A DNA stretch of 62,981 nucleotides, counting the filler, from Dugesia japonica (taxonomy: Eukaryota): the NCBI GenBank assembly GCA_001938525.1. It is 6 parts of 6 records of this genome, joined end to end, with 100 filler letters (N's around TTAATTAATTAA, not from the genome) between each part and the next. Parts side by side here need not be neighbours in the genome. Positions count along the whole stretch, not along the records: positions 54,734 to 62,981 come from MQRL01643052.1; 5 more parts are not named here. One strand, given 5' to 3'. The notes below the pieces were generated by a model. The model did no database searches, was not told the DNA's origin, and saw nothing but the letters and a program-made list of their open reading frames with translations. Below are positions 11,351-62,981 of this stretch, one piece after another (positions within the stretch are counted from its first letter, which is position 1; each line of letters opens with the position of its first letter). Position numbers and translations under genes: made by a program.

Positions 11351-11990
11351 AAAAATAAGGTGCATAAATGAAATTTAATTCAAAAAAATTTTGTTTTTCT
11401 ACAGACATTCTTTGATCACGGGACGGCTTGTCGCTCATAAAATACCTAGTAAATAATCAATAAAATGATTTGAAGAGCGATGTTGAATCCGTCAGCTTAT
11501 TCTTCTCAGATCACTCTCCCCAATGATTGCAAAATCCACTGAACTAGATCTAAAAAATTCAGAAAACTAAATCGAATTTATAAATTTTCTGCGATGCTCA
11601 ACAATATTTCCACTATTTCGACTATGCTNNNNNNNNNNNNNNNNNNNNNNNNNNNNNNNNNNNNNNNNNNNNNNNNNNAAAAATAAGGTGCATAAATGAA
11701 ATTTAATTCAAAAAAATTTTGTTTTTCTACAGACATTCTTTGATCACGGGACTGCTTGTCGCTCATAAAATACCTAGTAAATAATCAATAAAATGATTTG
11801 AAGAGCGATGTCGAATCCGTCAGCTTATTCTTCTCAGATCACTCTCCACAATGATTGCAAAATCCACTGAACTAGATCTAAAAAAATCAGAAAACTAAAT
11901 CGAATTTATAAATTTTCTGCGATGCTCAATAATATTTCCACCATTTCGACTATGCTCTTGGACTGTGGCGTAGAGATAATGGAAAGTCTC
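11351..11990 (-). mobile_element. Penelope-like GIY-YIG/3' fragment, duplicated across an N gap
   Basis: Minus strand VQEHSRNGGNIIEH is homologous to 7995-8043 and 12345-12390; 11351-11628 recurs at 11679-11956. Confidence 0.6.
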
Positions 11991-42219: not shown

Positions 42220-43580
42220 GAACAAGGACTAAAACTGGTTATTGTCCAACGCCATGGATACGGGTAAAATGATGTAGAAAGCATTCGGTCATCAGTCACT
42301 ATCGAGAAAAATTGTATTCAAGTGGTATAAGCTCATCATAGAATGTTATAAATCAATCGAATATGCATATTATTCTGGTCATTCATCAACTTCAATAATT
42401 AAAAAAATGTAAAAAGAATTAAAAACAAAGTAATGAAAAATTGTCATTTGGCTATGAGAAAGCCTGCTAAAGATGTTGACATATTAACAGGTTCAGTAAT
42501 ATGTCAAGTAAACATAATTGTAACTGATGTTTTCGGCTTGAAGCGTTTGACAGCAAAACATATTCCAAAATCATTGAATGTTTTTTGTTGATATTTATTC
42601 CTAAAGATGTATTTCAAAGAGTGAATACTGATCTAACATTCATTTAAAGTATTATTAGAGTTTCCTGTTGTTTTATTAACATATCAAACTTGTAAAGTGA
42701 ATTGCGTGCTTCAAATGAAGCAACAATAAAAAGTTTCGTTAAACTCAATCTGAAACCTCTGTTTTTGGATTATCAAGATATGATGCATCATATAATTTCT
42801 GGAATAATGTAAAACAGCTAATAAAGAGTATTACTTAAAAGCTGTGAGTGAAGTCATTCGTTAAAAAAACCGGATTTATGGGCAAAAANNNNNNNNNNNN
42901 NNNNNNNNNNNNNNNNNNNNNNNNNNNNNNNNNNNNNNATATTATTCTGGTCATTCATCAACTTCAATAATTAAAAAAATGTAAAAAGAATTAAAAACAA
43001 AGTAATGAAAAACTGTCATTTGGCTATGAGAAAGCCTGCTGAAGATGTTGACATATTAACAGGTTCAGTAATATGTCAAGTAAACATAATTGTAACTGAT
43101 GTTTTAGGCTTGAAGCGTTTGACAGCAAAACATATTCCAAAATCATTGAATGTTTTGAAAAACAACATTGTGTTGATATTTATTTCTAAAGATGTATTTC
43201 AAAGCGTGAATACTGATCTAACATTCATTTAAAGTATTATTACTGGAGATGAAACTAGAGTTTGCTGTTGTTTATTAACATATCAAACTCGTAAAGTGAA
43301 TTGCGTGCTTCAAATGAACCAAGAATAAAAAGTTTCGTTAAACTCAATCTAAAACATCTGTTTTTGGATTATCAAGATATGATGCATCATAGAATTTCTG
43401 GAATAATTTAAAACAGCTAATAAAGAGTATTACTTAAAAGCTGTGAGTGAAGTCATTTGTTAAAAAAACCGGATTTATGGGCAAAAAATTCATGCATTTG
43501 GCACCATGATAACTCACATGTTTACAATGCAATCATTCGTAAGTTTCTCGTCAAACATTCAACAAATATTGGTTTGCAAG
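42220..43580 (+). mobile_element. Decayed mariner-family element, partly duplicated across a gap
   Basis: DVLGLKRLTAKHIPKSL, SIITGDET and KKPDLWAKNSCIWHHDNS; 42367-42888 recurs at 42939-43488. Confidence 0.85.
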
Positions 43581-44387: not shown

Positions 44388-45230
44388 TATATAAATAACC
44401 AATAAGAATACTTTGAATAAATTTATTTTTGATGTATAAAAAATATAACTATAGTGTTACATCTATAAGCAAAAATTTAGAAACAAACTAGAGATGCCTT
44501 ACCAGAGAGGTCGGATTCTAGCTTAATCAAAAGTCACTACAAATTAGCCAAAACTGATCAGTATTTATACTGATTTTACATACGTAGGCTATACACACAT
44601 CAATGATCAAAACTAATAGATATATTTTTATAATAAAATAAACCGTTAAAACAAAATTAATTTTTCAGATAAATAAAATTATTATTTACAACATAAAACG
44701 TTTGAGATAAAATAAATGTTCAAAATAAAATTAATCACAAAATAAAAATACCTCATAATTAAAATAATTGTTTAAATATCATAGAGTTATTATTTACATC
44801 AAGGATAAATAAATCATTGTTTAAATATCATAGAGTTATTATTTACATTAAGGATTCTCATAAACAAGATAACAATAGAAAGTTCATCGATCTGATCTTG
44901 AGTTGGATTGCATTGAATGTTGAAATCGAATATTCATTTGACTCTTCCAGATGTTGATTCGAAATTGCTGTTTATATTATATTTATTTTTGCCTGCATGC
45001 TATGTTATGTATATATTCAGACCTCGAATGATGTCAATTTTCAAATCGAGATTTATATGCATCTTTATGATATTTTTAATAAATATTATTTAAACAAAAT
45101 CTTATTTAATAAATTTATTATAAATGTTTTAAATTTAAATAAAATAGAATATGCTACAAAACTGATAAGCAAAACAATTTCTTCCTTGGTTTTGGAAAAA
45201 CCTGTATATTAGCATCACAGTTAGTTAATA

Positions 45231-46240
45231 ATGACATCGAATAATTTTTATACACTTTTATCTAGTAATAACTGTCCTCATATTCATCCGGATAATAATT
45301 CTAGTAAATTCATTTTTGAGTTTCAAAATTCGATTTATAGGGATGGACAGTGGGGAGTAGCAGTGTTGGATTTACCTTTGTATATCAAACATTTCGATTA
45401 TATAACAAGTCTAAAATTCAATACATGTTTACAAAAAATAAATCATATGAAATAACTGTTACAATTCATCACAAAGAACAATACTTGAGTGTCAATGAAA
45501 ATGATAATGTTTATAAATCACATATGGAATATTTAACTTTTAATTGTGAATATCCATAAGTTGTCATATTTAAAAATGAAATAATTGCAAATACATTTAG
45601 ATTCAAATATAAGACTAACAAAATTTATCCTGAATATTATCGTATTAGGTATAAAATATTTAAAGAAGATTATCCAATAAAATATGTATAATTTAAAATA
45701 GAATATTCTTAAGTAANNNNNNNNNNNNNNNNNNNNNNNNNNNNNNNNNNNNNNNNNNNNNNNNNNNNNNNNNNNNNNNNNNNNNNNNNNNNNNNNNNNN
45801 NNNNNNNNNNNNNNNNNNNNNNNNNNNNNNNNNNNNNNNNNNNNNNNNNNNNNNNNNNNNNNNNNNNNNNNNNNNNNNNNNNNNNNNNNNNNNNNNNNNN
45901 NNNNNNNNNNNNNNNNNNAATTGAAGAATGGTGTATTACAAGGTATTAGAAATCCAAAAGTAATTAAGTTACGTCAACAAATGTTCATCTATAGTAGTAT
46001 TGTCGAGCCTATAATTGTAGGAGATGTTAAAGTTCCTCTTTTGAAATCTGTATTGATAGAAAAATATGAAACTGATGAAGTAGCACAAATAATAGTTGAT
46101 AATCCAATGTATTTACCAATTGCAACAACATTTTATAAAAAATATAGAGAGTAATATACGTGATGTTAATGGTAAATTAATCAGGTTTCCAAAAGATTCA
46201 AAAACACATTCAACTTTACATTTTAGAAAACCTAATGTCT
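45231..46240 (+). pseudogene. Polinton/adintovirus minor capsid (penton), disrupted
   Basis: N-terminus FYTLLSSNNCPHIHPDNNSSKFIFEFQNSIYRDGQWGVAV; C-terminus MFIYSSIVEPIIVGDVKVPLLKSV..NPMYLPI..IRDVNGKLIRF..TLHFRK. Confidence 0.8.
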
Positions 46241-46610
46241 AATTCCGATCTTATATCATTGTATATTAACAGCCAAGAAGGTAGAGAATTGCCTTAATTT
46301 GTAGGAAAACAGTATGGTTCCGACTGGTTGCGAACAATAGGTAGATTTGCGCTTATTATTTTTAAGCTTATTAGTTAATTTGGTATGAAAACTGCTCAAG
46401 ATGTAATAGCCAATAATGGAAAAATATTACCAACATTGAAATATAATGCATAGGCAGAACTTGATAATGTATTGTAATGTATCTTCGTTACCTAGTGAAG
46501 TAACTAATATGATAGCAAAAGTATCAAACATGTTACCATCCAGTATAATAAATAGAATTCCATCAGAAATAAGTAATATGATAACAAAGCAATCGCAAAA
46601 AAAATAATAA
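46235..46610 (+). pseudogene. Small conserved Polinton ORF between penton and hexon, disrupted
   Basis: LYINSQEGRELP*FVGKQYGSDWLRTIGRFAL fits the recalled Q.G..LP.F.G..Q.G.G pattern and the expected position. Confidence 0.55.
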
Positions 46611-46659
46611 AAACCGTAAAAAATCAAATGCATCACGAATGTGAGAACATGGAATAATT

Positions 46660-46975
46660 TTTGAAAATGATTTGCGGAAAAAAACTGAGTTGAATTTTTG
46701 ATAGTCCATCACCTCAAAGTGTTATTGAAAATTAATTCAATTTCTGAATCAGAAAGTGATGTAGAGTTTTGTATAAATGGATCACAAACTGAATATTTGG
46801 ATTTGAATGATGCTTTATTGTATATTAAAGTAAAGGTAGTTGATAAGACAGGCAAAGGTTTGACTGATAAACATAATGCAATTCCTAGTAACTATATGTT
46901 GCATATGCTTTCTAAGGATCTAACTCTTTCATTCAATAATTTCAAAATTGAAGGTGGAAATGGAATTCAAAAAGC
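46660..46975 (+). pseudogene. Polinton/adintovirus major capsid (hexon) N-terminal fragment
   Basis: DVEFCINGSQTEYLDLNDALLYIKVKVV..IPSNYMLHMLSKDLTLSFNN matches the MCP start pattern IEF.I.G..YIDL..LY..K..P.N..LHSLF..V.LN. Confidence 0.8.
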
Positions 46976-48059
46976 AATGTATTGGATGAAAATATTTATT
47001 TGCTTTTATTTATTTTTATTTAATTTTATTTAGAAAAATCTTCAAATACATTCGCTGAAGGTTTGATTGAATTTCATTTTAATTATATTATTTTGTCTGA
47101 GAATTGTTTATAGAATTACTTAGACTTCTTTATCCATGCCTTGAAGATGAAATACTTTATTGTGCACCAGAATTGATTTGGTGCAAAATAAAACGAATGG
47201 ACGGAATCGATATCGAAACGGTTATAAACTTATTCAATGAATATCATAACGAAGACATTGATTGTGAATATTGTTATGAAAAGAATAAAGATTTGAAGAG
47301 ATAATGTATCTACTCTGAGTCTAATAAAATACAATGTTAATAAATTTATGTTAAAGTTAATTTTGTTTGGTATTAAATAAATTTTAATTTAAGCAGACTT
47401 TATNTTTTCTTTATTATTGAATTAAATACTTTAAATAATAAAGATTTTCTGTTATACTTTTTATTTTTGCTGACTTAATTATGTCGAAACAAAACACTTT
47501 ATATACTATTTGTTAATGTAATCTATAGTTAGTTTTTAATTCTTTACAAAATTGTACAAAAATTAAATTTTAAAAAATTAAAAATGGCGACATTTATCCT
47601 CTTTTTAAAATTTCTTTGTTTAATATGTATGATTACGTCACTTGGTTTTTTTTCATACATCAATACAGAGCTAATACAGAGGTAGTCGTTCAAAATCAAG
47701 TTCCGTGAGATATCATGTTTTTTTTTTGAATCTGTGGTCAAAAAACTAAATTTCTTTATTTCCATTTTTTGGCAGGAAGACAGCATTTTAGAATAAAAGC
47801 TTATGAGACTTTCCTATCTTACTTTTTAATATCGTTGCGTGGCTTTACTTTGCGTGTCTAATAATACCTAATTTGTTTTTAAATGATGGAAATAACGCAC
47901 AGGAGAATCAAAGAAAATCGTGAAAACGTTTTGAAAATTGATTAAGTAATTAATTTAATTATTTTGTAATCGATAATGTAATCAGAAATAATTAAATTTT
48001 CTAACGTGATTTTAGTGGGAAAGGATGCTTATTAAGAATCGAGTTCATGATTCATATAT

Positions 48060-48447
48060 ACTATACTACATATACTAAAATTTTCGTCGTGATCGATTGT
48101 CATCAGGGGGTGGTTTCATGCTAACATACATTTTGTATGAACTGGAGCATTTTTCGGTACAAATACTTTAGGTGATGTATAGGTAGTTTTTAATTTTACG
48201 AAAAATGGCACAAATTTCCATGCGATATCTTTCAAAATGGCAATGTTTTTAAATTTAAATTTATTCGATGGTTCTACTCATAAACTTGGCAAAAAAAAAT
48301 TTTAATGACCTTAAAATTTAAAGAAAATCGAGAATAAAAATCAAAAATAAAAAATTGAAAAAAAAATCGCACGAAAAAACATTTTACCGACGGTTGGGGG
48401 GTAGGTGATTTCAAGCTGACATATCTCACTACTATATATAAACTACT
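48060..48447 (-). mobile_element. Putative Polinton terminal inverted repeat remnant
   Basis: Minus strand begins AGTAGT-TTATATAT-AGTAGT..AAATCACCTACCCCCCAACC; same scaffold as the penton/hexon remnants. Confidence 0.45.
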
Positions 48448-52657: not shown

Positions 52658-54633
52658 CTAAAAGCATTTAAATTTTATCAAATCTTTTAATGAACATTAT
52701 AAAACCTCATTAAAACTCTAATTAAAATCTAAGTACAAAAATAAAATAATTGCAGAATGAAANTAATAAATTTATTAATATTTTCCCCCCATAAATGAAA
52801 TTAATTATAATAACTGTTTAATTAAATTAATAAATATATTTGTATTGCCAGAGAATTACAATCAAATTTTTCATATTTTCTTTTATATTATAAAATAAAA
52901 ACAGATGATGCGTGAATATATTTATCTTTTTATTATCTATTTGCCCCCTTTTTAAAAAAAAACTTTTGATATGTATAATATAATATATTGTAAATATTGT
53001 TAAAATTACACCTGAAAATTCATAAATGCGTCCGACACCGTCAAACTGAATTGTTTATGCAAATCATATAGAATTATATAACTAATTTTTGGTACCAGTG
53101 TGATTCAGTTGCACGGATTTATTTATTTATTTATGATTATAACAATAATTTTAGTAAGGCGGCAAAAAGTAACAATTTGATTATTTTATGAAAAATATAA
53201 ACGAATATAAAAAATTAATCGTTAATTTCGATTAGTTATTTCGAGAGTTATTTCCAAAACTTCGATAATAATTCAATTATACGTAAAAAATAAATTAATA
53301 TCTTTCCAAAATTTTTAATCGGAAATAATTTTTAAAATCCCAAGAATAAAAAGAAATAAAAATTATCTATATTTTTTAAATATTTTATTTTCAATCTATT
53401 TTTTTTATTTTTAAAAAACCAACAAATCAATTTAGTTTTCGGATTTTTTTTCTTTTAAAAAAATATTAGCATTTCATTTTAAATTATTTCAGACTTTAAA
53501 TTAAAGCACTTTACAAATAATGATTTGTTAAATATAGCTAAAATTTTAGTGCATTTTAATGATCAAGAATTTTTTTTGCAATTGCAATTATTGCGAGAAT
53601 AATTGTTGGACTTAACCATTGATCGTTTTATAGAATTCATTTAANNNNNNNNNNNNNNNNNNNNNNNNNNNNNNNNNNNNNNNNNNNNNNNNNNNNNNNN
53701 NNNNNNNNNNNNNNNNNNNNNCAGGATTTTACTTTTTAATTTATTCAAGGTTTATAATAGTAATAATTTTAGAAATAATTTATTTTTATTAAATTAAGAA
53801 TTTTTTGTAAAAAATTTTTATAATAATTAATAAAACTAAAATTTTTACGTGAATTATAATGTTTATTTGATGTAATCAAAGAAATCTTTTTATATTTACA
53901 ATACTAACTTCTTTCTTACAATCCCATAAAATAAATAACTTGGAAAGTATTAAGTTTATCTAATTAACGAATAAACATCAATCAATATTGGTTTTTAAAA
54001 TCTTCATTGTTAACCTTCTAATTTAAATTAATAAATTTACTTTTAACATTCTTTAAAAATTAAGTAAGTATAAACTTAAATAAAATAGTTAAACGTAAGG
54101 AAAATTATGTATCTTTTAACAATGATTACAATACGAAAATTTCATAATGAAATACATGTTTTTGTTTAANNNNNNNNNNNNNNNNNNNNNNNNNNNNNNN
54201 NNNNNNNNNNNNNNNNNNNTATTAAGTTTATCTAATTAACGAATAAACATCAATCAATATTGGTTTTTAAAATCTTCATTGTTAACCTTCTAATTTAAAT
54301 TAATAAATTTACTTTTAACATTCTTTAAAAATTAAGTAAGTATAAACTTAAATAAAATAGTTNNNNNNNNNNNNNNNNNNNNNNNNNNNNNNNNNNNNNN
54401 NNNNNNNNNNNNNNNNTAATGAAATACATGTTTTTGTTTAATCGAACAAACAATTCTTAATCAGTGCCAACCCTTATTTTAGTAATTTATATATAAAATA
54501 CTTAAACAAAATTTGGTTATATTCCTTTGATAGTTTAAAGTTTTATATGAATTATTAATTCATTGGTAAAGTAATGGTGGATTTCAAATTTGAACTTTAA
54601 ACTGCTCAATACAAAAGAAATTAGTAAAAATAA

Positions 54634-55390: not shown

Positions 55391-56172
55391 ATCAAACAAA
55401 TACAGGCATATTGTGTTGTAAACGTTTTATAAATTTTACGTCAGATATGCTCCACTATACATTTTTTTATTTTATCTTACGTCTAATATATTAAGTAAGA
55501 ATGTCTCGATGTAAATCGTCAATTGTAAATTTTTGATCATTTTTATTTTTCAATTGTTGTATATACCTCCGGTTTTAAATGTGGAAGTTTTATGTAGTGT
55601 TATTGTTTTTATTATTATTTTTTTAGGGAAAAAAGTGTATGTATATACGTGTGTGTATATGCATACACACACGTATAATTATAATAGTATTAAAAATATT
55701 ATTAAAGAATTATAAAGGTCAATAAATAATATTGATAAAAAGAAAAATTTAAATTTTGAATTAAAAATATAAAAACTTTGCAACCGCTTAAAGCCGAAAA
55801 TCACACGAAATTAAATTTTAAAAAAAAGAAAAGAAGATTTTAACGAATTTAAATTGGAATAAAAAAATGATTCAAAATAAAATCTTGGCAACAGCTGAAA
55901 ATTTCAAATTAGCAATTCTTAACAATACTGTACTAGTATTAATTGTGCAACAATCTATAAAGCATACATCCCGGTTGTCCCAACATTGAGACAGGAGACT
56001 CTGCTGGGCTCGACAAAATTCCTTTGGTAATAAAATAATAATTATAAGAATAACAAATTATACAGTGTAATTAAACAGAATAAATAGAAAATCATAGATC
56101 AGGAAAACGCCCAACCGTTTATTTATTCTAGCTATTAACTTAACAAATAACTGAGATTAAGTTAATAATCCT

Positions 56173-56929
56173 TTACATATAGATTAACATTTGATCATGT
56201 AACTTCATGATTTTTGATTTGGTAATAGCTTTGAACAAGCCTCCCTTCATATCTGTAGGAGAATATTGTTGTTTGTCTAATCTCAATGTTCTTGTCAAGA
56301 CATTATCAAATACAACTTTTTTGACATCATCTTGTAGCTCAAATTCAAAATATTTTCCCGCATTTATAAGACATTTCTTAAACATTTGAGTACAATTTTC
56401 GGTCAAATATTTACTTAACTGTTACAATACTGATATGTATATATCATCTTTTAACTGAAAAGTTCTATAATTCACCACTGGATAAGCCACTTTAATTTTA
56501 ATTTTTTGTACTGTGACATCATTTTTAAAGTTTGTATAGATATGACCAAATTTCTTTGATAATTTGTTAGATTTAAATCCTAATCCAAATGAGTGTACGA
56601 TATGTGCATCTTCAAATATGACAACATGTCGAAAATCGCAATAAAATCTTATGAGATTCTTTTCAAATATTTGCAAATTTTTATTTTGATCCACACTAAG
56701 GGTTTTTTCCTTGTTATTTATTGTTACAGTTATTTCATTCAATATATTTTTTGCTGACATGTATTTTAGACTTGCTTTATACTGGAAATGGCGAATATAG
56801 TAAAGTAAAGTCCATCATGGCAACGTCCCAACTACCATCCATATAAATTGGATTTTTTAGCTCGACAATGAATTTACTAGCATTATTTTCAGGATGAATA
56901 AGTGTACAGCTACAATTACTTGATTTCAT
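56173..56929 (-). pseudogene. Polinton penton (N-terminal and middle part), disrupted; paralogue of 45231
   Basis: CTLIHPENNASKFIVELKNPIYMDGSWDVAMMDF aligns with the 45231 ORF; continues through ORFs 56422-56760 and 56173-56406. Confidence 0.75.
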
Positions 56930-56939
56930 CTGAATTTTC

Positions 56940-57783
56940 TTCTTGATTGACTATTTGTGATGCTAATATCCAACTTAATTTTTCGTATCCGTGCCACTTT
57001 ACATAGTATTGTTTATTCCTGATCCTTTTAATTTGATTATTGTTTCTATTCTATATATCTCTGGTGGTGGAATGACTTGTAATTCTTGCTCATAGAATTG
57101 TTTGTACTTACATCCACCGGTTTTGCTCCATTTAATCCCTTATGACCAGAATGATTATAACTATTAATAAGTTTCGGTAAAACATTTATCCAAGTCTTAT
57201 TACCAACATGTACAAAGAATCTTTTCAATGCATCTTTCAGTGTACGATTAAATCTCTCTACATGTTCAGGTATATACTGAGAGAATACACTATACTGGTT
57301 TATAGATAGATGATCTATAAGTTGCTTGACCTTGGAATTGTAAAATTCTTTACCTAAATCTGTTTGTAAATTATCTGGATGTTCATTTTTAAACATTGAC
57401 TTGATTGCTGGTTCCATATTATTAGCAGATTTTGATTTAACAGGAACAGCTCTCGCAAATCTACTGAATACATCGATACATGTCAAAATATACTTGTACA
57501 CTTTATTAATTTTTGAATATGGCATCATCTCCATTAGAAAACATTTGAAACATTTTGAAAAAACATTAGAATACATTTGCCATAAATCATCAATACCATA
57601 TGTTTTATATGCTCTTGTTGAAATTCTTTTCAACATTGGCTTGTTTAGACTGTACGCTAGCTGCCCAGATAACCATGTTTTCGTCTTTCTTTTCGTTTCT
57701 GGAGCTGCTTTCATCAATTTTTCTACGTCTCAAAAACCTGCTGGGCTTTTTGGATCCGTTTATATTGTCTTTAGTTTCCCCAT
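56940..57783 (-). pseudogene. Polinton retroviral-like integrase with C-terminal chromodomain, disrupted
   Basis: YTDPKSPAGF..WLSGQLAYSLNKP..GIDDLWQ, YILTCIDVFSRFA, LQTDLGKEF, VERFNRTLK; chromodomain KQYYVKWHGYEKLSWI. Confidence 0.9.
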
Positions 57784-57889
57784 TACAACAGTTTAATGCA
57801 AAGTTTAAGTCAAAATTAGGTAATGATTGAAATCCACCCATTGTTTATTAATATATTGGTCAAAAGCGTAAATTGTTTATTTGAAATGA

Positions 57890-58205
57890 GTTAAGCCTCA
57901 TGCTGCTAATGCAATTGGTAGTAATGCTGCTATAAATCCAACACCTTGATTGTCTCGTATTACTTTCCTCATCAATCTTCCACGTTTTGTATTTACAAGC
58001 GATAGCAAGATTTTTTATGTTTTTTCAATGTTTCCTTTTTAGCTTTGCTCAAATTTACATTACCACGAACAATATTTATAATAATCTTAAGTAAATCATC
58101 CATAACATATGGTGGAAATGATTACATAATGCTCATTCTCATTGGCTTTGATGATTTAATCAAAGCAGTAAAAAACGGAATACTTCTTTCTAATTTCAAT
58201 TTTAT
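57890..58205 (-). pseudogene. Small conserved Polinton core/membrane-active-like protein, disrupted
   Basis: INIVRGNVNLSKAKKETLKKHKK..NQGVGFIAALLPIALAA fits the recalled N.L.GNV.L..K..L..HK / Q.GGFL..LLP pattern. Confidence 0.65.
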
Positions 58206-58524
58206 TTCAATAACAAAGAAATACCAGTTAATTGTTTATAATGATATCTATTTTCCAGTCATCAATTCCAGTTTCTTTCCGTTACTTTTTGAAAGTTTTT
58301 TAAACTTATTCAATTGATTTTTCTTATTTGCATACGTTTTCTTATGATATTGTTTCTAGTGGGATTTTTTTCTTATAAGATTGTTTCGTCTTTTTCTTCA
58401 AAACTAGCTTTTTTCGTAGTTTAACAACATCACCATCAGCAGCTGAATCAACTACAATTTTCTTAAACTTTGCATTTTATATAGTATTATGAAAATTACT
58501 TATTTTATTTATATACTGCGATAC

Positions 58525-58832
58525 TATTATGGTTGAATATATTTGTTCTCACCCTATAATCCTCTGGACATTGTTGTGTAAAGTCGAAAATTAAATATCC
58601 ATGTCGTTTTTCTGTTGCATCTTTAAATGATTCAATAAGAAATTGTCTGTTATTTGGATATGCTTGTCTTGCTAGAAAATCANNNNNNNNNNNNNNNNNN
58701 NNNNNNNNNNNNNNNNNNNNNNNNNNNNNNNNNNNNNNNNNNNNNNNNNNNNNNNNNNNNNNNNNNNNNNNNNNNNNNNNNNNNTCACAGTCACATTACG
58801 ATGTCTCGATATCTTTGTGAATAAATTATTGA
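58525..58832 (-). pseudogene. Polinton A32/FtsK-like packaging ATPase, C-terminal part
   Basis: NLFTKISRHRNVTV (gap) FLARQAYPNNRQFLIESFKDATEKRHGYLIFDFTQQCPEDYRVRTNIF. Confidence 0.85.
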
Positions 58833-60173
58833 AGATTATTATTATTATTTAAAGATAAGAATGGCATTAGTACGCCTGTAAATATGCATAAAAGGAACAT
58901 AAGATTGAGGACAGGATTCACACGAACCCTCACAGTAAGGAGGAAAACTGTTGCATAAGTATGGTGGCGGAGAACACAAACAGCTTCTTTATAAAGGTTT
59001 AAAATATTAAATTAGATAAATTATTGAGTTTAATTGTGAGAGATAATCTGTTTTAGACTAAAATTACAAAATTTAAACTTTTTTTAAAAATAATTTGACT
59101 TGACAAGTTTTACTGCAAATATTCTTGAAAAAAGCAAACGTTTTAATCGAATAGTACATGAATCAATAAATTTTGATGAAAATTAATAATTTTTTATTTA
59201 TGTCGGTTAGAATCCTCGGGATTTTTAACATGTTTTCTCAAATTTTCTAAGTCAAGTTTGATGATTTTAGGTGTTGATTTTTTTGACCAGTGAAAAATTC
59301 TCTTTAAAATAATGTTAGTTTCGTTAGAATAAGAGAAAAAATATTTTCAAAATTCTCGAAAAATCAAATACTTTACTTAATTACCTCAGCACACAAAAAA
59401 CGTTTGTCGACTTTAACTAGGTAGTCATGATGAGCGGAAATTTCTCTATCAAATTAATTAGTTTATATTTAAATTCGAGAACAAAATATTTTTCGAAAAA
59501 CAGGCTAACCCGAGGAAATTATTGCCCAAAATCATAGGAAATTGACCTTTGTTAGTAAATAATAAACTAAGTTTGAACTTCATGAGGAAATTTCTTACAA
59601 AATCACCCAAAAATCAACCTTCTCGAAGAATTTTTTTATCAAATCGTTTAAATAATAATCAATTCACATTTATCTATCTTGTAAGAACTGAGAAATTGCA
59701 TCATTTAATAAAAAATCAGTTTGTATAAAAGTTATATTTTGGAGCATATTATTTTGTGAAACAATAAATTTAACATTGGCTATATGCATTATTAAAATTG
59801 TTTAAAAATCATTTTATAATTTTAATGGTCAATCAGAACAAAACATTTAAGAATAATAGCCGTTCCCAACATTATAAATAAATACAGATTATACAAAAAT
59901 AACATAATTATAATATTAAATATCAAAATTTATAATTCCAAATATATTATTTAAAATATTTACAATAAAATAAACATAAATAACATGATTTCTTAAAATA
60001 AAACAGATAAATGGTAAAGAAAATATAAAATATTAAAATAAATTCTACTTTTAAAATTGTTTATTTATTTAAATTATTCCAACAAAAACCAAACTTATCA
60101 TTGTTTGAATAGTTTATTACCTAAATAATAATTTCTTTAAAACAATTCTATTGCACGTGAATATATTTCGTTT

Positions 60174-60532
60174 ATGGATAAAATTATTCACAGAATTGTT
60201 AAATACCAAAAGATTGGTCGTAAATCTTTTGATGTTTATAAAACTAAGGAGCCTGAAGTGGTATGTCAATTAAATCATCTAAAAATGTATTTACTTTAGT
60301 AATTTAGACCGATTACATAATCTTTTCATGTATTGATAAGAGAATAATACCAAATGACTTCACAAAAGTACCAATTGGCCATTTGTTTGTTGTGAGAAAT
60401 GCTGGAAACTTTATTCCAACATATGATCATCATAATTTTCAAGAAATTTCCAGTGAAGGTGGTGCTATTGAATTAGCTGTTAAAAGAGCTGGGATCAAGG
60501 ATATCATAATTTCTGGACATTCGGATTGTAGA
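60174..60532 (+). CDS. Beta-class carbonic anhydrase, exons 1-2 (60174-60260, 60308-60532)
   Basis: Spliced MDKIIHRIVKY..EPEV|TDYIIFSCIDKRIIP..LFVVRNAGNFIP..EGGAIELAV..IIISGHSDCR| with CxDxR and HxxC zinc motifs; 47-bp GT-AG intron. Confidence 0.92.
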
Positions 60533-60895
60533 GTAGGTTAATAAATTTAATAATGCTAGAATTTTTATTTATGATTATGATTAAATTTAAATATTTTAAT
60601 GTACTTATTTATTAAATTTTTCATTTTTTCTACTAAATTTAGGGTTACAGTTTCGAATATACAAATTTTGAATTTAATATTTTACAAACTTGTAATGTAA
60701 TTGCAAATTTGAAATGATTAATTATCGAAACGAATCAAGTTAAAATGGTTGCCTTTTAATGGAAATGTCAAATAACGGTTTAATATTTAATTCTAACTTG
60801 GATCGTTTTTTTTTTGAGTATATAGATGCATAATTACAGAAAATTAGTCAAGCTTAGATAAAAATAATTTTTTTAAAATTGTACTAGATTTAGCT

Positions 60896-60916
60896 CAGTG
60901 GTTCTCAAACTATGCT
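60896..60916 (+). mobile_element. hAT MITE terminus interrupted by the downstream element
   Basis: CAGTGGTTCTCAAACT, same terminal type as 27074, 33282 and 52254. Confidence 0.55.
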
Positions 60917-61029
60917 AGTAGATGATGAAAGGCGCGACAAGACACCCACCCCCCCCTACCATAAAAAATCATAAATTTTTTTTCAGACACCCCCCCCTAC
61001 ATAAAATAAAAAATGTAGTATGTCTAGAT

Positions 61030-61355
61030 AGTATGTAGACTGGCTCATAAAAGTTTGTAGTTTGCAGACTGGCTCATAAAAAGATAGACCAACACATAAA
61101 AGTTTGTAGTTTGCAGATCAACACACTGAAAAAGATAGACTGGGCCCATATAGTTTATAGTAAGCAGACCAAAAGTATTTAGACTAAAATAACTGGTAGG
61201 GAGTTGAGAGACTGTAGATTATTGTGAAAAAAAAATAGTTTTACCATGTTTTACCACGTTTTACCATGTTTTTCTTAGTTTTACCAACTTTACCCAAGTG
61301 TTACCAATTTTCGCTCGCTGACACCCACTTTCGACCGCTGTCGCTCGCTGTCGAC
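61030..61355 (+). repeat. Modular subterminal repeats of the element
   Basis: AGACTGGCTCATAAAA, GTTTGTAGTTTGC and AGATAGAC modules at 61030-61190; 10-bp TTTTACCAYG-like units x7 at 61239-61310; TCGCTCGCTG x2. Confidence 0.85.
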
Positions 61356-61387
61356 TCTGGGTACTTTGAAAAACCTGTTTTTTAAAA

Positions 61388-62098
61388 ATGAAAAAAATGG
61401 AAAAAATGAAAAAAAATGAAAACCCTAAATTTTTCCCTTATAAAATGGAGATTGAATACAAAATAGATATAAATAAAGATTGTGAAAATTTGAACATGAA
61501 AGAAAAGATTATTATAACTAAATATTTAGAAATTGTTAATAAAAATTTATCATTAAAACCATTTGAAATATCTAAAAAGATTGGAGTTAGTACAAGAGAA
61601 ATGAATATTGTCCTGAGAAAAATGGGNCTAATAGATGAAGCAAAAAAGAAAAAACCTGTTATCAAGAGATTTACTTATGAAAATGAATTATTTATACCAG
61701 ATAAAGAAGGTGTATACTATAAAAAATCAGCAAATAGTTTAATAGAATATAAACCTATTAAAGAAAAGAAAACAGAACAAGAAAAGATTATAGAAAATAG
61801 TAATAAAATTAAAACTAAACTAATAAATGGTTTTAATGATAGGAAAAATAATCCCAAACTAAAGGTGGAAGATTTTAAAGGAATATTTAAACATGGTAAA
61901 ACTGTTGTAGAAGATGTAAAAGGTGGTAAAATGGAATTGGAAGATCTTGGAAATTATAATGTAATTGGAAATGGATTACCAACCGAAAACAATAATACAG
62001 TTGAAATAACAAGTTCTTTTATTGAAAAGTATGCAAGAAATCCAACTAATTTAAAAAGAAATACAAGTCAAGTAAGTTTATCAAATGAATTTAAATAA
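61388..62098 (+). CDS. Element ORF1, 236 aa, putative helix-turn-helix DNA-binding protein
   Basis: Intact ORF; LKPFEISKKIGVSTREMNIVLRKMGL has an HTH pattern followed by a KKKKP basic stretch. Confidence 0.6.
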   Translation: MKKMEKMKKNENPKFFPYKMEIEYKIDINKDCENLNMKEKIIITKYLEIVNKNLSLKPFEISKKIGVSTREMNIVLRKMXLIDEAKKKKPVIKRFTYENELFIPDKEGVYYKKSANSLIEYKPIKEKKTEQEKIIENSNKIKTKLINGFNDRKNNPKLKVEDFKGIFKHGKTVVEDVKGGKMELEDLGNYNVIGNGLPTENNNTVEITSSFIEKYARNPTNLKRNTSQVSLSNEFK

Positions 62099-62119
62099 AC
62101 TAAAAAGTTACTATAATAA

Positions 62120-62485
62120 ATGGATAATAATAATTTGAATTCAATTACAAAAGATAAAATATTTGTTAATGAGATATTTAAAGGTTTAGAGGAAGTTGTA
62201 GAAAAATTGGATAGTGAAGAGAGAATGAAAGATACTATTGAAAAATTATACATTAGTTATCGAACTTATAAAGAAGCATACGAGAGGGAGATTAAAAAGA
62301 AACAAAAGAATGTAAGTTTTGATATTGATGCAGAAATACAAAATATGCAAGAATTATTCAAACATAAAGAAGCTATTAAAATTAAATACTATAATACAAA
62401 GATTAAAAAAATTAAAGCTGATAGAAAAAACTATTTAATAAATAGTTTAAAAGAAGATGAAGAGTTTTTCTCAAAAAATAAGTAA
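62120..62485 (+). CDS. Element ORF2, 121 aa charged helical protein, unknown function
   Basis: Intact ATG-to-stop ORF, tightly packed between neighbours. Confidence 0.6.
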   Translation: MDNNNLNSITKDKIFVNEIFKGLEEVVEKLDSEERMKDTIEKLYISYRTYKEAYEREIKKKQKNVSFDIDAEIQNMQELFKHKEAIKIKYYNTKIKKIKADRKNYLINSLKEDEEFFSKNK

Positions 62486-62490
62486 AAGAA

Positions 62491-62775
62491 ATGGATCAAA
62501 TAAAAGAAGAAGAAATAATAAGTATTCCTACAGACACAAGTGAAGGGACAGTAAAATTAATAAAAAACAGTCAAAGCAATAAAAGTAAATATCAAAACAT
62601 GATTGTTGATTTAAAAGCTAAAGTAAAAATTTACAAGTACATTATTATTTTTATATTAATAGTTGTAATAGTTGTAATTATTTTATGTTACATCAACAGA
62701 GTAAAAATAAAAGAGTGGTTAAAAGAAAAATTCCAAATGAACCATACCAAATGCAAAATGAATCATACAAAATGA
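62491..62775 (+). CDS. Element ORF3, 94 aa single-pass membrane protein
   Basis: YIIIFILIVVIVVIILCYI hydrophobic run flanked by basic residues. Confidence 0.6.
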   Translation: MDQIKEEEIISIPTDTSEGTVKLIKNSQSNKSKYQNMIVDLKAKVKIYKYIIIFILIVVIVVIILCYINRVKIKEWLKEKFQMNHTKCKMNHTK

Positions 62776-62832
62776 AGTAGACCAAATGAAGTAGACCAAA
62801 AGTATTTCTAAGAAAATATCTGATACAGAAAA

Positions 62833-62981
62833 ATGGATCTAGATTTTAATATTAATTTTACACACAACCAAACTAAAAATGATTTATTGAAAATATCACC
62901 TACAGCAGGGTCAATAGTAAATTTAAACAAGAATGGTGATGTATCATTTCAATCACTACAAAATACTAATCCTTTAGATAT
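62833..62981 (+). CDS. Element ORF4 (truncated by the window), possible major capsid N-terminus
   Basis: Open to the window end: MDLDFNINFTHNQTKNDLLKISPTAGSIVNLNKNGDVSFQSLQNTNPLD; loosely resembles hexon starts (P..G..LN..G.I.F). Confidence 0.4.
   Translation, partial: MDLDFNINFTHNQTKNDLLKISPTAGSIVNLNKNGDVSFQSLQNTNPLD

Follow-up and report, generated by a model that had tools for sequence, protein, structure and literature searches.

A putative Polinton/Maverick-type terminus and accessory-gene arm in a beta-carbonic anhydrase intron of Dugesia japonica

Polintons of planarians and other animals

Polinton/Maverick elements are described with TIRs of 100–1500 bp and TSDs of 5–8 bp in the available part of PMC10748475. 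For vertebrate Mavericks, the accessible sections of PMC8097293 give AGT or AG end motifs in the forms (AGT)2 or (AG)3, TIRs of 46–1447 bp (mean 402) and 6-bp TSDs, together with intronless ORFs and accessory regions that flank the core; according to the abstract of that paper, no Polinton virions have been observed in animals. Four S. mediterranea Polintons of 11.6–15.9 kb are catalogued in the portion of PMC4028283 that includes its Table S1 (Polinton1_SM, -1_SM, 2_SM and -2_SM), and that table also holds the Hydra elements Polinton-2_HM and -3_HM, which measure 39–43 kb and are without MCP, penton, ATPase and protease. Polintons of S. mediterranea are silenced by piRNA, according to the available text of PMC8532177, and a Maverick expansion in Dugesia is reported in the accessible part of bioRxiv 10.64898/2025.12.11.693146. 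The available part of PMC6431247 describes other large repeats: giant Gypsy elements of S. mediterranea that carry accessory ORFs and number in the thousands, and Burro, in which multi-kb LTRs precede a single polyprotein of 4,873 aa.

We analysed a stretch of D. japonica DNA of 62,981 nt, filler included, with 25% GC (hereafter the window). Two pieces of decayed canonical Polintons lie within it, at 56000-58800 (minus strand) and 45150-47030 (plus strand), and are 70% alike over 437 nt. They hold an ATPase end, an rve integrase (E=1.3e-8) and penton-like and MCP-like remnants. By eye, the ATPase and integrase remnants match ATP-1_SM, ATP-2_SM, Polinton1_SM_2p and INT-2_SM in supplement S3 of PMC3671162, the part of that source compared, and the capsid remnant matches the S. 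mediterranea 'Polinton-1' probe in one supplementary row of PMC8532177. A further stretch at 48385-48447 (minus strand), 1.4 kb beyond the MCP remnant, has AGTAGT twice followed by a C-tract; its layout of AGT and C-tract is that of the element described below, and it may represent the decayed end of a Polinton.

That element occupies the last 2 kb of the window, in an intron of a beta-carbonic anhydrase (beta-CA) gene. It likely belongs to an already known kind, the Polinton/Maverick transposons, and we think it probable that the visible part, with its accessory genes, forms the left arm and terminus of a young virus-like element of this type. This reading draws on an AGT terminus, a 470-nt repeat leader, intronless packed ORFs, multicopy spread and the fit to vertebrate Mavericks. 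The S. mediterranea Polintons are probably from the same host group and share an AG(T) end, intronless packed ORFs and multicopy occurrence with the element, and decayed relatives of theirs lie in the same window; unlike them, the visible ORFs match no published core protein in trimmed alignments. No description of the intronic element was found among the papers searched.

Insertion site, terminus and repeat leader

Contigs or reads from 4 of the 24 listed sequencing runs (X1, X3, X4 and X22) were compared with positions 59982–62981. The first coding exon of the host gene lies at 60174..60260 (plus strand, ATG at 60174) and is spliced in X1 to position 60308 over a 47-nt GT..AG intron. Exon 2 (60308..60532, plus strand) matches Pfam Pro_CA (E=1.5e-17) and ends at a donor GT at 60533, where contigs have loose ends. 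Splicing from exon 2 to a further beta-CA exon was seen in one X1 contig and in 41 X22 reads, in transcripts that are not tied to the insertion-bearing allele. The element begins 384 nt after the end of exon 2, within intron 2, close to the approximately 385 bp given in the first-pass annotation. A second beta-CA paralogue is also expressed, as a diverged contig over 60329-60480 (X1 depth 579) with matching X22 reads.

Immediately before the element stands a 21-nt hAT-type repeat end, CAGTGGTTCTCAAACTATGCT (60896..60916, plus strand), which is interrupted by the insertion and of which the last 6 nt are a candidate left TSD. The element then starts with its left terminus, AGTAGATGATG (60917..60927, plus strand). 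The annotation had described a hAT-MITE end cut abruptly at 60917; the abrupt end of a repeat, here given the provisional label 'hAT', is there. Since six look-alikes of the first 16 nt of CAGTGGTTCTCAAACTATGCT start elsewhere in the window, with 2–3 mismatches each, CAGTGGTTCTCAAACTATGCT is a common repeat end. In X1, a 442-nt contig (depth 62) spans 60504-60943, including the junction, with zero differences, although 27 letters fall on the element side where our bridging rule is 31. One X3 contig (depth 5) joins at exactly 60917, preceded by 11 other letters. Both contigs favour 60917 over 60896 as the element boundary.

The same contigs bear on two other explanations of the junction. In one, the true end would be the hAT-type end at 60896, which abuts the element and faces into it, and the whole would be a hAT-virus composite or a gene-capturing hAT moved by hAT transposase, in the manner of Teratorn. 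We consider this very unlikely: the X1 contig is unbranched over 60896-60943, so that no other X1 copy shares both the hAT end and the terminus, the X3 contig has unrelated letters up to exactly 60917, where it joins the element, and six more such ends occur in 61 kb, although the evidence against a composite is thin, at two contigs. In the other, the assembly would have produced a chimeric join at the end of a scaffold, or the ORFs would have arisen by chance. Gaps are frequent in the assembly (2455 N in 44 runs across the window, filler included), with near-identical duplications beside them, the scaffold ends in a very high-copy repeat, and the X1 bridge has the short element side given above. 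Nevertheless, the X1 contig crosses 60916/60917 without a difference, which also answers the annotation's own concern about a chimeric join, and none of 2000 shuffles matched the ORFs, leaving this explanation the least probable of all those we weighed. Among 16 X3 and X4 pieces listed (1467 more exist), none crossed the junction, in a host flank of patchy coverage, and no loose end at 60916 was present among the 24 rows listed of 403. We conclude that the element has a sharp end at 60917 in beta-CA intron 2 and that the junction is no assembly chimera. Elsewhere in the window, near-identical duplications at 11351-11956, 42367-43487 and 53948-54362 lie beside N gaps and point to scaffolding artefacts.

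The terminus reads AGTAGA at the one end seen, and therefore differs from the exact (AGT)2 or (AG)3 forms; its first five letters, AGTAG, occur 84 times in 121 kb counted over both strands. Behind it, a repeat-rich leader at 60917..61387 (plus strand) is a candidate left TIR. It contains twin C-tract modules at 60940 and 60985, followed by 49-nt, 10-nt and 9-nt repeats, in line with the twin C-tracts and roughly 470 bp of modular repeats that the annotation had reported. Seven AGAC[CT] motifs fall within its 471 nt, against about 0.4–0.6 expected (P about 2e-6). A 15-nt sequence before ORF4, AGACCAAAAGTATTT (62793..62807, plus strand), is an exact copy of leader positions 61166-61180, and these are its two exact copies in the window; it is a candidate promoter motif. 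From the recurrence of such motifs, the AGACC box appears to be an element-specific candidate promoter. The leader did not fold stably, as 99 of 100 shuffles did equally well, and had no Rfam match. To the left of the element, no inverted partner of the leader was found in the window (best E=0.023), and its absence there is expected. The terminal DNA pattern recovered 44 loci in viral contigs, none related beyond the seed; a single metagenome match was rejected as chance, since it lies within unrelated coding sequence.

Compared with the vertebrate Mavericks, as far as the accessible sections of PMC8097293 describe them, the element has an AGT-type end, a leader length within the TIR range and an accessory region near its end. 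It is unlike them in its AGTAGA end, in its unrelated accessory genes and in the suggested exchange of arms between subfamilies.

Four intronless ORFs and their composition

Four co-oriented ORFs follow the leader on the plus strand. ORF1 (61388..62098) encodes a basic protein of 236 aa, or 217 aa from the ATG at 61445, which is the likelier start because 61388 falls in a 9-nt repeat. ORF2 (62120..62485) encodes a charged orphan of 121 aa, ORF3 (62491..62775) a 94-aa protein with one membrane helix at residues 50-68 (Kyte-Doolittle 19-residue maximum 3.56), and the start of ORF4 (62833 to 62981, where the window end cuts it) encodes 49 aa. The spacers between them are 21, 5 and 57 nt, within the 5–57 range given in the first-pass annotation. 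In dinucleotide-matched shuffles, 0 of 2000 reached either a 236-aa ORF or the same-strand total, and the same-strand coding content of the element is 451 aa, compared with 346 aa in the best of 108 windows elsewhere. Among the 15 joints listed of 26, none was a GT..AG joint at depth within the ORFs. Thus, the ORFs are intronless, tightly packed and adjoin the element end. The annotation had called the element intact, which holds for the visible 2 kb, to which we limit the claim: the four ORFs are unbroken, except that ORF1 carries one N (61627).

ORF1 is predicted to contain a three-helix HTH at residues 37-87. The single-sequence AlphaFold2 model reached a pLDDT of 70-88 over residues 31-80 (mean 47.9 overall) and had little structure besides the three-helix bundle. 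Its VIA matches reached Z values of up to 6.4, tied between generic HTHs and within the range of common arrangements; the tied rows included the Z-alpha domains of ZBP1 and PKZ (Z 6.3, rmsd 1.9 over 50; Z 5.5) alongside TetR, AraC and sigma domains. ORF1 had no Pfam match at E<=1, and the Tyr and Trp positions among the Z-DNA-binding residues of the Z-alpha winged helix are not evident in it. The HTH-like character that the annotation had assigned to ORF1 is therefore borne out by prediction, but as a generic fold rather than a specific one. The annotation had proposed structure searches for viral hallmarks; Foldseek with the ORF1 model gave no match at E<=0.001 in BFVD and PDB, and only the generic HTH was seen. 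Weak Foldseek rows for a lentiviral integrase (E 0.5, rmsd 12) were rejected.

Homologues of the ORFs were not recovered in the collections searched: 0 of 383 candidates and none among 1.84 billion representatives for ORF1, 0 of 11 candidates for ORF2 and 0 of 8 longer candidates for ORF4. An exact protein look-up returned 0 of 5 (one query had no Met start), the Atlas gave no usable match for ORF4 or ORF2, and Pfam, PHROGs and NCBIfam gave no ORF match above cut-off. The PDB sequence search and tblastn against phages returned nothing, and IMG/VR was blank where tested. No related loci were found in viral contigs for ORF1-4, nor in metagenomes or prokaryote genomes for ORF4. No virus hallmark gene is present among the four ORFs of the 2 kb seen: MCP, penton, A32 ATPase and protease are not in this stretch, a protein-primed PolB or rve integrase is not in ORF1-3, and the 49 aa of ORF4 had no match, with the POLB-1/2_SM reference rows being without N-termini. 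The endogenous DNA virus that the annotation had proposed is accordingly a hypothesis. Within the ORF4 fragment, a short and weak model predicts one beta-hairpin (62905-62955), which may be reminiscent of fibre-shaft repeats. The starts of ORF1 (ATG 61445) and ORF2 stand in TAAAATG and TAAATG contexts (61437-61445 and 62112-62122), which may be chance in A-rich DNA; we take these contexts to recall the late promoters of large DNA viruses.

The ORFs also stand apart in composition. Over the ORF block (61388-62981), CpG observed/expected is 0.16 (3 seen versus 19.3 expected), compared with a median of 0.96 and a minimum of 0.56 in 62 other windows and with 0.59-0.65 in the decayed Polintons. Tested against a ratio of 0.6, this depletion gives P=0.003, and it contrasts with a host that has no general CpG loss. 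The coding DNA of the ORFs is 50% A.

An integrated linear DNA virus, or a giant self-synthesizing element outside the canonical Polintons, would be another source of such genes. It could be a Polinton-like virus, adintovirus-like, or a capsid-less giant resembling Hydra Polinton-2/3_HM, and would have entered the host recently and multiplied to hundreds of copies. Each of the four ORFs is an orphan, the CpG ratio of the ORF block is far below that of the decayed Polintons, and the Hydra giants show that atypical elements with Polinton ends exist and that large ones from AT-rich freshwater invertebrates are classed as Polintons. However, the orphan status is uninformative, because accessory genes are usually orphans and the searched collections are likely without a RefSeq-type host proteome, and low CpG can stem from A-rich coding for K, E, N and I. 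We regard this source as doubtful, if clearly less so than the alternatives above. The annotation had argued for a separate lineage from the fact that the ORFs resemble none of the decayed Polinton family. That lack of resemblance was confirmed, but the argument built on it fails: the decayed remnants are core genes (ATPase, integrase and capsid-type), whereas the new ORFs are at an accessory position, and since accessory genes were being compared with core genes, no resemblance is expected either way. The strong CpG depletion of the ORFs, by which the element differs from the decayed copies, is the sole positive hint of a different origin.

Copies, expression and place among Polintons

In the DNA runs, family contigs numbered 652 in X3 and 691 in X4 and were spread over 85-100% identity, which indicates a diverse multicopy family. 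Mean summed depth in X3 and X4, respectively, was 5.6 and 18 over the host flank, 314 and 573 over ORF1, 138 and 222 over ORF2-3, and 5080 and 6187 over the last 100 nt; summed depth is no copy number, and we use its order of magnitude alone. The start of ORF4 was 16-fold (X3) and 11-fold (X4) deeper than ORF1, and contigs covering it had other DNA before 62829, seen as loose ends. In all three of the long alternatives listed, AGACCAAAA occurs about 20 nt upstream of 62829, compared with 40 nt upstream for the window's copy. We infer that a body common to a far larger family begins at ORF4 and that the left arms are interchangeable. The depth jump at ORF4 would also explain why the scaffold stops at the window end. 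The leader was less deep than the ORFs in the DNA runs, where a conserved TIR would give double depth. These data support a real, young, dispersed multicopy mobile element with a fixed end, which the X1 and X3 contigs put at 60917.

The very deep ORF4 region would also suit a family of a thousand copies, and hence the end of some other large host repeat with the small ORFs as passengers, for instance an unclassified transposon or a giant Gypsy LTR element of Burro type. Some Gypsy LTRs begin with AGT. Giant Gypsy elements with accessory ORFs reach thousands of copies in S. mediterranea (available part of PMC6431247), and Burro and GYPSM1 resemble the element in that they are present in very many copies, contain tandem repeats and accessory ORFs, and tend to break short-read assemblies. 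Unlike their single giant polyprotein and long LTRs, however, the element has four small packed ORFs that start 470 nt from its end (in the 2 kb seen), and its leader is far rarer than its body, the reverse of an LTR. This makes the large-repeat explanation improbable, little more credible than the hAT composite, and the arm of a Polinton/Maverick-type element is still the preferred reading.

Differences between copies gave a mixed picture of constraint. Twelve of 30 indels were listed, eight in ORFs and four outside; some of them may be one event or repeat slippage. The eight listed within ORFs keep the frame, as six multiples of three and one +1/-1 pair 12 nt apart, while the four outside are all single bases. 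Among the 21 rows of ORF substitutions listed (190 further rows exist), 17 were non-synonymous, 4 synonymous and none a stop; with a random expectation of 18% synonymous, these 21 carry no purifying signal.

Several features of X1 make it look like RNA. The intron-1 bin was at 68.7, compared with 68.6 expected from the spliced contig alone, with no unspliced intron-1 contig; the excess over ORF4 was absent (1.3-fold ORF1); and at 62901, the majority letter of X3 (87%) and X4 (86%) made up 7% of X1 depth. In addition, most of 61206-62858 was covered by X1 contigs without differences from the window, at depths of 139-520, compared with 62 for the host intron. The RNA status of X1 is a guess of the tool, and its contigs are without strand. 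From these observations, the window's own element subtype is probably transcribed in the X1 sample. In X22, which consists of poly(A) raw reads from a strain with six fixed beta-CA differences, exon depth was 23-57 and element depth below 1.1.

If the element is a Polinton/Maverick, as we favour, a retrovirus-like rve integrase would have put it into a short repeat in beta-CA intron 2 with a short duplication, and a 6-bp TSD would flank it. The leader would be the left TIR carrying an origin for protein-primed replication, and a protein-primed polymerase would copy the element from its ends. The genes for pPolB, integrase, ATPase, protease and capsid would lie rightward, past the window end. 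The AGAC(C) boxes would serve the element as a promoter motif of its own, which the HTH protein of ORF1 may recognise. Some animals would transcribe the window subtype, whereas others would silence it, probably through piRNAs.

If the element proves to be one of the catalogued Polinton_SM elements, it would amount to a commonplace insertion in an intron, useful for some details, namely the promoter box and strain-limited expression. A bolder reading, which we hold tentatively and think unlikely, is a family of planarian DNA viruses that has not been described before and has no relation to the catalogued Polinton_SM elements, with a conserved body in hundreds of copies, interchangeable CpG-poor left arms of orphan genes, a shared AGACC promoter box and one subtype transcribed in a laboratory strain. 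If that were true, the life cycle of an animal 'polintovirus' could be followed in a regeneration model. The exchange of accessory genes would be illustrated by the arm-and-body pattern, and a young, apparently transcribed Polinton in a stem-cell model with piRNA control, as documented in the available text of PMC8532177, would give an observable case.
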